DNA of 64,000 nt, from the NCBI RefSeq assembly GCF_011045215.1, contig NZ_CP049201.1; one strand, written 5' to 3'. The position numbers and the translations under genes were made by a program. Shown piece by piece: positions 63,600 to 64,000 of the stretch. Source of the DNA: Escherichia coli. Its GTDB lineage: Bacteria; Pseudomonadota; Gammaproteobacteria; Enterobacterales; Enterobacteriaceae. The notes below the pieces were generated by a model. The model was not told the origin of the DNA. It ran no database searches and worked only from the letters and a program-made list of their open reading frames with translations. Position 1 is the stretch's first letter. Every line of letters starts with the position of its first letter.

Positions 63600-63653
63600 T
63601 ATGTTCAGCGAGCGGTAAATGCCGTTTTAGCGGTGCTGAATCGAATCTTTTCA

Positions 63654-63706
63654 GGCAAATGCCAGTAAAAACTGCTTCATAGCGCGGATTTTTACTGGCG
63701 TTTGCC
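63654..63706. terminator. long inverted repeat downstream of yqcA (possible terminator or regulatory hairpin)
   Basis: GGCAAATGCCAGTAAAAA ... TTTTTACTGGCGTTTGCC, 18-bp arms with one mismatch around a 17-nt loop. Confidence 0.35.
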
Positions 63707-64000
63707 TGGAGTCAAGCGATCCATTTCATACTCTTCTTTATTTCTTCGTTTTAACCCTTCCTTTCTTGTTCTTGTTTTCATTTCCGTGAAGTGGATTCCA
63801 CCGTCCAGGGCTAATGCCAAAATCGGGCCTCATTGAACGCATTAATGTTGTGTTGTTGCACGGTGAGCCGCTATGGCGCGCTTTTTATACTGCTATTACC
63901 AGATATTAACACGCGCCGTATTCGGCGAACGACCTATAAAAACGGCAAAAAACACCCTACGTCACCTCTGATTTCCTGGCGATGTCGCAGTCCAGAGTGA

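Follow-up and report, generated by a model that had tools for sequence, protein, structure and literature searches.

What role does the long palindrome downstream of yqcA play in Escherichia coli, and where does the control region of the following gene begin? The palindrome lies near the end of the 64,000-nt stretch of E. coli DNA that we analysed (contig NZ_CP049201.1; hereafter the window), in the 434-nt spacer between yqcA and gudP. The yqcA coding sequence (flavodoxin; 63150-63599, + strand; taken from the list of open reading frames and from the RefSeq annotation of near-identical E. coli records and of K-12) is the last gene in the yqcC-truC-yqcA run, and its stop codon is located 54 nt upstream of the palindrome. 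The gudP gene starts 34 nt past the window end.

A single-copy palindrome folds into a very stable RNA stem-loop

The initial annotation described an imperfect palindrome with 18-bp arms and one mismatch at 63654-63706, and both its coordinates and its sequence are correct. The left arm, GGCAAATGCCAGTAAAAA (63654-63671, + strand), is separated by a 17-nt spacer from the right arm, TTTTTACTGGCGTTTGCC (63689-63706, + strand). The arms are complementary at 17 of 18 positions, and the sole mismatch, T63660/G63700, becomes a G·U pair in RNA of the + strand, the strand that is sense for yqcA. A repeat search extended the inverted repeat to 35-nt arms with 77% complementarity (63637-63671 and 63689-63723). 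With arm separations of up to 60 nt, the palindrome is the longest inverted repeat of the whole 64 kb. When up to three mismatches are allowed, the arm sequence occurs in the window at two sites only, the arms themselves (0.06 expected), and the palindrome was present at one place per genome in 5,425 genomes. Being single-copy, it is not a repeated element of the REP/BIME, ERIC or MITE-like type.

RNA folding predicts a full stem-loop at 63650-63710 on the + strand, beginning 50 nt past the yqcA stop codon and consisting of 26 pairs (22 contiguous, a 1-nt bulge and 4 more) closed by an 8-nt loop. Its stability ranges from -40 to -46 kcal/mol, with z from -6.6 to -9: a 101-nt window on the + strand gives -46.3 kcal/mol (z -6.6; none of 200 shuffles was equally stable), the 65-nt hairpin core has a z of -9.0, and the - strand gives -38.3 kcal/mol (z -5.3). 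This hairpin is the only strong structure in the yqcA-gudP spacer. In six of six Escherichia lineages the + fold exceeds the - fold in stability by 4-12 kcal/mol, since the positions outside Watson-Crick pairing form G·U on the + strand; this wobble-pair bias is based on about four events versus two. A strain variant, C63662T (ML35), likewise gives U·G.

Candidate signals for transcription termination

With its 26 pairs, the hairpin is indeed larger than a typical intrinsic terminator, as had been noticed from the sequence. It is not a canonical one, because no U-run follows the stem: the tail reads UCAAGCGAUCC, short of five U among the eight positions directly 3′ of a GC-rich stem. The spacer between the arms (CTGCTTCATAGCGCGGA, 63672-63688, + strand; 17 nt) forms a weak inner helix of 4 pairs (-2.8 kcal/mol), and a U5 run sits behind this helix inside the stem. 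With no trailing U-run and the U5 buried behind a weak helix, canonical intrinsic termination is therefore unlikely. A terminator scan of 63100-64000 found no terminator-like site, and neither did a second, purpose-made scan of the E. coli spacer; on these two negative scans we rejected a canonical terminator in E. coli.

Beyond the stem, a pyrimidine-rich, rut-like tract with more C than G occupies 63720-63799 on the + (yqcA-sense) strand (C:G about 2.5:1 in the composition profile). Over 63700-63800 the sense strand has a GC skew of -0.33 to -0.43 and an AT skew of -0.6, values that serve as a heuristic only. By this heuristic, the RNA past the stop codon is C-rich, G-poor and weakly structured, as in Rho-type termination, and the tract is a candidate site for Rho loading. 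In sequence the tract is not conserved; in length it is fixed across genera (71-72 bp between the B and D boxes described below; 61 bp in genome L033).

The supplements of two Term-seq papers contain no entry for yqcA, gudP or the coordinates of the locus, and RIL-seq-based tables of small-RNA candidates list ‘yqcA CDS’ only, with a score of about 0.0002 and no 3′-UTR or intergenic entry. A literature search returned no mention of yqcA in the context of RNase III cleavage or retroregulation and no paper naming yqcA together with gudP. In a search of Rfam 15 with E up to 1, no match fell within the yqcA-gudP spacer of E. coli or of five other genera, all matches being located at or beside csrB; a known Rfam family was ruled out accordingly.

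The long hairpin is confined to Escherichia

The palindrome of K-12 is identical to that of the window, and 5,425 of 5,426 complete E. coli genomes carry it, about three quarters of those sampled being 100% identical across 101 nt. A comparison of 80 Enterobacteriaceae genomes shows the long hairpin in Escherichia only, where every lineage that still has gudP retains it (six of six divergent lineages sampled); E. albertii has lost both gudPXD and the hairpin. Citrobacter and Superficieibacter have reduced forms, some of them shorter terminator-like hairpins at the homologous position, and in Salmonella, Raoultella, Kosakonia, Phytobacter and Silvania the palindrome does not exist as a hairpin (z about 0 to -2). 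The initial expectation of conservation among relatives thus holds for E. coli and for Escherichia with gudP, partly for the two genera with reduced forms, and fails in the latter five.

The purpose-made scan revealed + strand terminator-like hairpins at the homologous position in genomes L009, L020, L054, L061, L063, L079 and L080, unlike the standard terminator scan, which gave none in L080. In L009, a Citrobacter, a hairpin with a T-run lies at the same alignment position and was called terminator-like on both strands; this canonical terminator is nested within 14 further complementary bases per side. Of 29 sequences, 7 have an inner segment that folds at z < -2, through stems of differing sequence, and on that count we dropped the idea of a universal inner terminator or core hairpin conserved everywhere.

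Projecting the E. coli structure onto the 29-sequence alignment left 66.7% of cells paired, versus at most 48% when the structure was slid along it, and the covariation score was 0.175 versus at most 0.122. Pair 44-76, for example, occurs as C-G (9), A-U (7), U-A (3) and U-G (2). RNAalifold returned no consensus structure for all 29 homologous sequences; the evidence for conserved pairing therefore comes from the count for the named structure and concerns part of the stem in part of the taxa. Among the Escherichia lineages, 1 of 18 columns varies in the left arm versus about 12 of 17 in the spacer, whose length is kept, and changes in the right arm are mostly G·U-compatible.

Some hairpin follows yqcA in every genome examined. 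In short-spacer genera and in genomes lacking gudPXD (E. albertii and others) a GC hairpin is found directly after the stop codon; E. coli has no post-stop hairpin other than the palindrome. The locus illustrates cleanly how, in one genus, a terminator-like hairpin gained a longer stem as its GC core decayed.

The predicted gudP promoter and leader

The region downstream of the palindrome had been proposed to lack open reading frames of 60 codons or more and to be, perhaps, the control region of the next operon. The largest frames in 63600-64000 encode 55, 44 and 42 aa, and these small frames (42-55 aa) were rejected as genes, being located in non-conserved linkers. Assignment of the remaining 300 bp to gudP control is strongly supported by the proximity of the gudP start, by yqcA-gudP synteny, which is kept across Enterobacteriaceae, by gap-free conservation in 62 species from 63775 onward, by a core promoter of the form TTGCAC-N24-TATACT (63856-63891), and by papers that describe PgudP/PgudTYD as a CdaR-activated promoter. 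Within the window the architecture TTGCAC-N24-TATRCT is found nowhere else, and garP and cdaR, which have the other CdaR-regulated promoters, each carry it a single time in their upstream regions. The predicted gudP -10 hexamer, TATACT (63886-63891, + strand; K-12 2,922,243-2,922,248, complement), is conserved in 62 species, and a promoter scan picks the same hexamer in Citrobacter; transcription is predicted to start near 63898 (K-12 ~2,922,236, complement).

Three boxes on the + strand accompany this promoter. The D box (TTTTCATTTCCGTGAAG followed by TTCCAC; 63775-63801) is conserved in 62 species, and a GTGAA...CCAC element similar to it lies upstream of cdaR. The F box (GGGCTAATGCCAAAATCG, consensus TGGGCTTATGCCAYAAAC; 63808-63825), conserved in the same number of species, is centred 43 bp upstream of the proximal TTGCAC box. 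The E box (AATGTTGTGTTGTTGCACGGTGAG; 63844-63867) overlaps the -35 position as the proximal site of the activator type and is a candidate for CdaR binding; our literature search found no experimentally defined CdaR operator or binding-site study. Downstream, the predicted gudP leader contains a conserved helix (63962-64000, + strand) in which TCAC-C-TCTG (63962-63970) pairs with CAGA-GTGA (63993-64000); RNAalifold on 40 species supports 8 pairs, 4 of them with compensatory changes.

The arms resemble a box of the gudP control region

The gudP control region does not start after the palindrome but extends upstream through it, and the arms appear to be copies of a box that recurs within this region. 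The left arm, or L box, resembles the F box. Wherever a genus has the module, the two boxes are 155 +/- 1 bp apart with the L box upstream, or 146 bp in Salmonella. The left arm (GGCAAATGCCAGTAAAA) is older than the hairpin. Since its sequence is kept, at a constant distance from gudP promoter boxes, in genomes without the hairpin, an RNA hairpin is not an explanation for its conservation. Only in Escherichia does the right arm repeat the left one almost perfectly in inverted orientation; elsewhere the homologous stretch reads TTTTTAC-N-GGCGTTTTCA(C/T), and the - strand F-like match at this place passes the threshold in Escherichia alone. From 62 orthologous F boxes we built a weight matrix, with the 95th percentile of shuffled maxima as the null. 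The matrix matches, all above the null, were the two arms, the garP-garD spacer at three places and the region upstream of cdaR. The scores are modest: 8.2 and 5.6 bits for the arms versus 20.2 for the F box.

Further boxes, all on the + strand, surround the arms. A third, weaker copy of the GGYAAATGCC box, GGTAAATGCCG (63614-63624; direct-repeat family D1), is present in Escherichia; in other genera it is replaced, by eye, by a box of the GGC-N4-GCCAGTAAGC type farther upstream. Motif positions and alignments define an A box, CTGAATCGAATCT (consensus ACTGAATCGAGTTAGC; 63636-63648), conserved in Escherichia, Citrobacter, Salmonella, Silvania, Superficieibacter, Kosakonia and Phytobacter at 74-76 bp from the downstream GTCAAGCGA box (66 bp in Salmonella). 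They also define B/C boxes, GTCAAGCGATCCATTTCATACT (consensus GTCAAGCGACCTGTTTCACACT; 63711-63732), whose TCAAGnGA is invariant in 29 sequences and which persist in some genera without the palindrome module; compared by eye with the textbook consensus, the B/C boxes seem to resemble a CRP site (aGcGA-N6-TCAcA). The A-B, B-D and D-E spacings are constant or shifted by about 10 bp across species, and such steps point to DNA-level constraints. A distance of 43 bp recurs between the centres of the arm cores, between the F box and the proximal TTGCAC box, and between the two gar boxes.

Several other candidates were discarded. Considered by eye as a duplicate of the proximal D-F-E module, the upstream module has the GGC-N4-GCC box alone in common with it. 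A minus-strand promoter, TTGACT-16-AAAAAT (63715-63688), consists of the TTGAC of the conserved B box and a -10 that is, again by eye, unconserved elsewhere. Pairing of the A box with the gudP ribosome-binding region amounts to a 7-nt match that is absent in E. coli and at chance level.

A proposed RNA boundary element at the yqcA 3′ end

In the reading that we favour, tentatively and at close to even odds, the palindrome derives from a terminator and acts as an RNA stem-loop by which the 3′ end of the yqcA mRNA is defined or protected. RNA polymerase would run past the yqcA stop codon and transcribe 63650-63710, and the RNA would form the 26-pair hairpin. The E. coli hairpin would have lost the GC-rich upper stem and the external U-tail still present in some sister-genus counterparts and would therefore probably be no efficient terminator alone. 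Starting from the structure, position and phylogenetic history of the hairpin and the nature of the downstream region, as described above, we infer three further steps: the untranslated RNA would expose the C-rich, G-poor tract at ~63720-63800, on which Rho would halt transcription before the gudP promoter; 3′ exonucleases would trim the transcript to the hairpin, which would thus set and protect the mRNA end; and the hairpin would insulate gudP from read-through. The left arm would double as an older, sequence-conserved upstream box of gudP, to which the Escherichia lineage made the right arm complementary. This reading is backed by the position and strand of the hairpin, its homology to terminators, the kept pairing, the occurrence of a hairpin after yqcA everywhere and the rut-like tract; opposed to it are the missing U-run, the restriction to Escherichia, the absence of a 29-sequence consensus fold, the conservation of the left arm in genomes without a hairpin and the ~10 bp spacing steps. 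The palindrome is real and very stable, yet, on this reading, an ordinary boundary element.

A different proposal is that the arms work as DNA: they would be inverted regulator boxes (core GGC-N4-GCC, then an A-run) of the glucarate/galactarate regulon, most plausibly bound by CdaR, and would form with the F and E boxes a phased far-upstream array (~-200 and ~-240), perhaps helped by a CRP-induced bend at 63715-63730, with the RNA hairpin as a by-product. The fixed distance from the F-like left arm to the F box, the matrix matches at the arms and at the gar and cdaR loci, the recurring 43 bp, linkers that keep their lengths and not their sequences (with changes of ~10 bp only, as in A-B of Salmonella and B-D of L033), the near-invariance of the left arm beside a variable spacer and the survival of B/C boxes in genera without the palindrome are all consistent with it. 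We nevertheless consider such an operator pair possible but doubtful. The arms score far below the F box, the F-like boxes are unlike the well-supported proximal box TTGCAC(A/G)(A/G)TG, and the well-supported common element TTGCAC-N24-TATRCT lies outside the palindrome; likeness of the right arm to the F box is limited to Escherichia, -200/-240 is unusually far for a sigma-70 promoter, and the literature search gave no defined CdaR operator. Moreover, an operator pair leaves unexplained the N/N′ co-variation, the changing GC stems with a T-run in several genera and the G·U bias. A neutral origin, in which template-switch mutation or drift made the right arm complementary in the Escherichia ancestor, so that function would reside in the left arm and the neighbouring boxes alone and the hairpin itself would serve no purpose, appears to us improbable. 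Extended pairing is indeed lineage-restricted, and both other genera and E. albertii do without the hairpin. The substitutions that turn TTTTCATAGGG of other genera into TTTGCCTGGAG are clustered and all directed toward complementarity with the left arm; clustered changes of this kind are the signature of templated correction in E. coli quasi-palindromes. Set against this are the retention of the palindrome in six divergent Escherichia lineages and in nearly all E. coli genomes, mostly without a single change across 101 nt, and right-arm changes that largely preserve pairing through G·U. In E. coli, long perfect palindromes are as a rule unstable, and the persistence of this one therefore suggests that it is tolerated or useful.

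We assign a very low probability to an RNA-processing or small-RNA element, either a sib-like retroregulator or a small RNA derived from the yqcA 3′-UTR. In the former version, a stop at the internal U-run would keep a short hairpin, while read-through would produce a stem of at least 22 pairs to be cut by RNase III; in the latter, the A box would be the seed and the hairpin the 3′ end. RNase III substrates need a minimum length (~20 or more contiguous bp), which the 22 contiguous pairs (one of them G·U), with 4 more past the 1-nt bulge, reach; the nested terminator of L009 has the tI/sib geometry, and the A box and left arm are conserved across genera within the 3′ UTR. However, the Rfam search was negative in all six genera, the RIL-seq-based tables give the yqcA coding sequence only, with a negligible score, the inner terminator is weak in E. 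coli, and the complementarity of the A box to the gudP leader is the 7-nt match that E. coli lacks. By eye, no convincing conserved promoter precedes the A box, and an independent small-RNA promoter there was rejected for -10-like hexamers that are inconsistent among genera. Hardly probable, too, is a dual use of the same 60 bp as a CdaR-type pair of inverted operator boxes, 43 bp apart in an activating region far upstream of gudP, and as a read-out RNA stem of at least 22 pairs that would form only in transcripts leaving yqcA and would be processed by RNase III in a sib-like manner or block exonucleases. If it were true, transcription coming from the upstream operon would affect how the activator occupies the gudP control region, and vice versa.

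Taken as a boundary element, the RNA stem-loop gives the yqcC-truC-yqcA unit a likely 3′ boundary, with little import beyond annotation. The gudP promoter is now placed, with its predicted -10 at 63886-63891. As a by-product, a testable picture of CdaR promoters emerges: TTGCAC 24 nt before TAT(A/G)CT at gudP, garP and cdaR, with GGC-N4-GCC 43 bp farther upstream. CdaR/PgudP is in wide use as a biosensor for glucarate or glycerate; efforts to shorten or tune this part could be helped by learning which of the upstream boxes it needs and whether these include the palindrome.

Comparison with known systems

Like REP/BIME and ERIC elements, the palindrome is an imperfect inverted repeat in a spacer between co-directional genes, but it is strictly single-copy, both in the 5,425 genomes and within the window. 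The gudP upstream region resembles the multi-site regions of araBAD and malK-malE in having a short palindromic box in several copies at fixed spacings (among them the recurring 43 bp), a CRP-like site between distal and proximal boxes, and length changes in steps of one helical turn; it differs in that the distal gudP boxes would lie at ~-200/-240, in overlap with the upstream gene's 3′ UTR, and in that its CdaR sites are predicted. With lambda sib/tI the locus shares a terminator-type core nested in complementary sequence, such that the full stem of at least 22 pairs would form in read-through RNA only; the likeness is one of geometry alone, and the inner terminator of E. coli is weak.

Intrinsic terminators, including bidirectional ones built of an A-tract, a hairpin and a T-tract, are a further comparison. 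The E. coli hairpin is located 3′ of a stop codon, with an A-run 5′ and a T-run 3′ of its centre, and counterparts in sister genomes are called as terminator-like, on both strands in L009 and by the purpose-made scan in L063 and L080. The E. coli GC stem beside the U-run, however, has 4 weak pairs, and the U-run lies within the 26-pair stem. Finally, in the model put forward by Dar and Sorek 2018 (PMC6061677), 3′ stem-loops protect Rho-terminated mRNAs against exonucleases. The palindrome has a much longer stem than such protection needs; like the stem-loops of that model, it is stable, has no U-tail, stands at the end of an operon and adjoins an unstructured tract with more C than G.

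Structure of the palindrome and its genomic context

The last 2.4 kb of the window correspond to the E. coli csrB/yqcC/truC/yqcA region. The CsrB small RNA (61619-61978, + strand; Rfam RF00018, 384 bits) is annotated in K-12, and the RefSeq record of strain PapM-32-1 carries no annotation for it. yqcA itself occupies 63150-63599 on the + strand (ORF list). Near-identical RefSeq records and K-12 have gudP as the next gene, on the same strand and 434 bp downstream of yqcA, which would place its ATG at about 64034, 34 nt past the window end.

The initial annotation had described a palindrome at 63654-63706, and sequence check and repeat search recovered the same arms (63654-63671 and 63689-63706) and intervening nucleotides (63672-63688); the ORF list also has no ORF of at least 60 aa in 63600-64000, which agrees with the annotation's claim for the last 300 bp. 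The comparison with K-12 that it had called for revealed differences at 13 of 1001 terminal positions, three of them in the yqcA-gudP spacer and none in the palindrome, which lies at 2,922,428-2,922,480 of K-12 on the complement strand. RNA folding, likewise proposed there, lengthened the stem to 26 pairs (63650-63710). T63660 and G63700 are the only positions at which the arms fail to match; they form a G·U wobble in RNA of the yqcA sense, and the opposite strand has a C·A mismatch there. A 101-nt window folds at -46.3 kcal/mol in the yqcA sense (z -6.6, with no shuffled sequence equally stable) and at -38.3 kcal/mol on the opposite strand. Among inverted repeats whose arms are separated by at most 60 nt, this is the longest in the 64 kb, and no further copies of the arm sequence were found elsewhere in the window. 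Scanning the whole window also brought up two further notable inverted repeats, at 52217-52260 and 43096-43164; one of these two has abutting 22-nt arms (AAAAATGACCGTTTTGATAAAT / ATTTTTAAGAGCGGTCATTTTT), the other 16-nt arms with 94% complementarity and a 37-nt spacer (CCCCTTTTGATTTCTT / AACAAATCAAAAGGGG).

A canonical intrinsic terminator was rejected, a tool scan having returned no terminator-like site in 63100-64000 and our own scan none in the yqcA-gudP spacer. The only U-run (63689-63693) is buried inside the stem, after a 4-pair inner helix of -2.8 kcal/mol. No Rfam family matched the palindrome in E. coli or five other genera, even at E up to 1. A dispersed repeat was ruled out, since 5,425 of 5,426 complete E. 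coli genomes each have the palindrome at a single place. Identity over the 101 nt is at least 99% in 4,939 of the 5,425 and 100% in about three quarters of a spread E. coli sample. A 401-nt query matched 5,492 places against 5,425 matching records, i.e. 67 extra.

The palindrome is part of an ordered module of boxes

Scanning with YqcA yielded 80 loci from different Enterobacteriaceae species. The yqcA-gudP synteny is widespread, with spacers of 280-515 bp. Long spacers, found in Escherichia, part of Citrobacter, Salmonella, Silvania, Superficieibacter, Kosakonia, Phytobacter, Raoultella and others, hold a module that runs toward gudP in the following order: an A box (consensus ACTGAATCGAGTTAGC); an L box (GGCAAATGCC-N-GTAAAA), which is the left arm of the palindrome; a variable segment of ~20 nt; a right side, TTTTTAC-N'-GGCGTTTTCA(C/T); the B/C boxes (GTCAAGCGACCTGTTTCACACT); a D box (TTTTCATTTCCGTGAAG), 71-72 bp after B; and an E box, which follows D by 76 bp. 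Conservation is gap-free in 62 species from the D box as far as the gudP ATG. In Enterobacter and other short-spacer genera the whole part upstream of D, or of B, is missing.

Linkers between boxes keep their length and not their sequence, and box spacing changes only in steps of about one helical turn (~10 bp): A-to-B is 66 bp in Salmonella (L024/L025) versus 74-76 bp elsewhere, and B-to-D is 61 bp in locus L033 versus 71-72 bp elsewhere. Such steps across unconserved linkers suggest that the boxes may be helically phased. One further locus, L043, appears ~11 bp shorter in the alignment. The B/C box at 63711-63732 reads GTCAAGCGA-N6-TTCA(C/T)A, with TCAAGnGA invariant in 29 sequences; it resembles a CRP site by eye and sits ~175 bp before the predicted gudP start. 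In E. coli 2014C-4135 (L086) similarity to the window ends directly after GTCAAG, and from locus position 147 (window ~63716) onward unrelated sequence, GTAAGCGTAAACTGACC..., comes next, which marks an insertion or rearrangement breakpoint within the B box.

Where gudPXD is missing beside yqcA, as in E. albertii (L013), Yokenella, Pluralibacter and others (L064, L070 and L071 among the loci), the whole palindrome module is gone and a short GC hairpin stands right after the yqcA stop. Past this hairpin, loci L013, L064, L070 and L071 appear to reach a convergent gene (presumably barA) at its 3' end. Short-spacer genera likewise carry such a hairpin; it is absent in E. coli, which has no strong structure other than the palindrome between yqcA and the gudP promoter. 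Many genera have a conserved CCCTCCC-loop-GGGAGGG hairpin, mostly without a T-run, immediately behind the yqcA stop and within the first 40 nt (L008, L009, L020, L023-L025, L047, L051, L054, L055, L058, L069, L079-L082), and E. coli has none. Just downstream of the palindrome, at 63700-63800, the sense strand has a strong excess of C over G and is rich in pyrimidines, which is what a Rho loading region would show.

Conservation of the hairpin

The hairpin is conserved only in part across Enterobacteriaceae. The homologous 65-nt stretch gives z of -7.0 to -9.5 in all six Escherichia lineages, -2.2 to -6.9 in five Citrobacter (-1.1 in the sixth, L022), -2.5 to -3.5 in Superficieibacter, and ~0 to -2 in Salmonella, Silvania, Kosakonia, Phytobacter and Raoultella. 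RNAalifold found no common structure over all 29 sequences. With the E. coli structure imposed on this alignment, 66.7% of cells are paired (slid controls, at most 48%) and the covariation score is 0.175 (slid controls, at most 0.122). The clearest covariation case is the N/N' pair in GCC-N-GTAAAA / TTTTAC-N'-GGC, which occurs as C-G (9), A-U (7), U-A (3) and U-G (2).

The outer 8-10 pairs are found only in Escherichia, where the right side went from ...TTTTCATAGGG to ...TTTGCCTGGAG, every change being toward complementarity with the unchanged left arm. Variable columns within the genus number ~12 in the 17-nt spacer between the arms, 1 of 18 in the left arm and 4 of 18 in the right. Stem changes there, one strain variant included, are mostly G·U-compatible on the + strand, a weak bias of about four events versus two. 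Some genera have, in the variable inner segment, a good hairpin with a T-run after it: that of Citrobacter L009 is terminator-like on both strands (tool scan), and our own scan found + strand terminator-like hairpins at this place in seven species. Folding is significant in just 7 of 29 inner segments, the E. coli segment not being among them.

The arms resemble a box of the gudP promoter region

A direct-repeat search grouped GGTAAATGCCG (63614), GGCAAATGCCA (63654) and GGCTAATGCCA (63809). The copy at 63809, the F box (consensus TGGGCTTATGCCAYAAAC), is kept in all 62 species. A weight matrix made from the 62 orthologous F boxes, with the 95th percentile of shuffled maxima as cut-off, gives the left arm 8.2 bits and, read on the opposite strand, the right arm 5.6 bits; in K-12, the region upstream of cdaR and three places in the spacer between garP and garD also score above cut-off. 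In all genera that have the module, the F box follows the L box at a distance of 155 ± 1 bp (146 bp in Salmonella). Given the matrix match and this constant distance, the left arm is an old sequence element, fixed in position and independent of the hairpin. The arm cores, centred at 63658.5 and 63701.5, are 43 bp apart, the spacing by which the F box precedes the proximal box at gudP; ~43 bp also separates the two gar boxes.

The gudP control region and CdaR-dependent promoters

The promoters of gudP, garP and cdaR are known from the literature as CdaR-dependent. The pattern TTGCAC-N24-TATRCT has a single match in the 64-kb window (63856-63891), one in the 15 kb surrounding the gar genes, on the garP side and 90 nt ahead of garP (L087 7007-7042, - strand), and one in the 6 kb surrounding cdaR, 24 nt ahead of its ATG (L088 2405-2440, + strand), with a chance expectation of at most 0.02 in each region. 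Since the pattern was derived from gudP and cdaR, the garP match is an independent test. The cdaR upstream region keeps TTGCACAATG and the TATGCT hexamer from E. coli to Pectobacterium, Dickeya and Pantoea, and the garP and cdaR promoters have the 14-mer GCATTTGCACAATG in common. We found no published CdaR operator in the literature available, and regard TTGCAC-N24-TAT(A/G)CT as a candidate signature of CdaR-dependent promoters.

The shared pattern and the box spacings place the predicted gudP -10 at 63886-63891, with transcription inferred to start near 63898. Within the predicted leader, 63962-63970 pairs with 63993-64000 in a conserved helix that extends past the window end, with compensatory change in four of eight pairs (40 species). 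A second small helix, seen by eye outside the window just before the ribosome-binding site, reads GCGT...ACGC in E. coli and TAGC...GCTA elsewhere. The suggestion that the tail may control the next operon thus finds strong support in the gudP gene that follows, the conservation from D box to ATG in 62 species and the promoter pattern at 63856-63891.

Weighing the explanations

Because neither an RNA role nor an operator role covers all features, we tentatively favour, at somewhat under even odds, a composite with the RNA role first: a terminator-derived stem-loop at the yqcA transcript end, set on an older gudP-upstream box. The stem-loop would mark and protect this end, termination probably being finished by Rho in the tract downstream, and would have been built upon the older box of the gudP upstream region. 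A role at the RNA level accounts for the strand position and wobble bias, for the N/N' co-variation and terminator-like counterparts, and for the fact that E. coli has no other 3' hairpin at yqcA, but does not explain the conserved left-arm sequence and fixed phasing. Exactly these, together with the recurring 43-bp spacing, would follow if the palindrome were purely a pair of DNA operators; that reading is unlikely, since it leans on modest matrix scores and leaves the co-variation, the changing GC stems with T-runs and the wobble bias unexplained.

More doubtful still is a functionless quasi-palindrome arising by templated mutation. An RNase III/sib-like or small-RNA element is the least probable, weakened by RIL-seq-based candidate tables that hold no 3'-UTR or intergenic entry for the yqcA-gudP spacer.

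The most useful outcome is a model, at the sequence level, of the promoters of the CdaR regulon. The tail is a promoter region of the ordinary, activator-dependent type; it is unannotated and we found it described nowhere in the literature available to us, but it is unlikely to surprise specialists. The palindrome is likewise real and of an ordinary kind: an unusually long, lineage-restricted hairpin that is most likely an operon-boundary structure.
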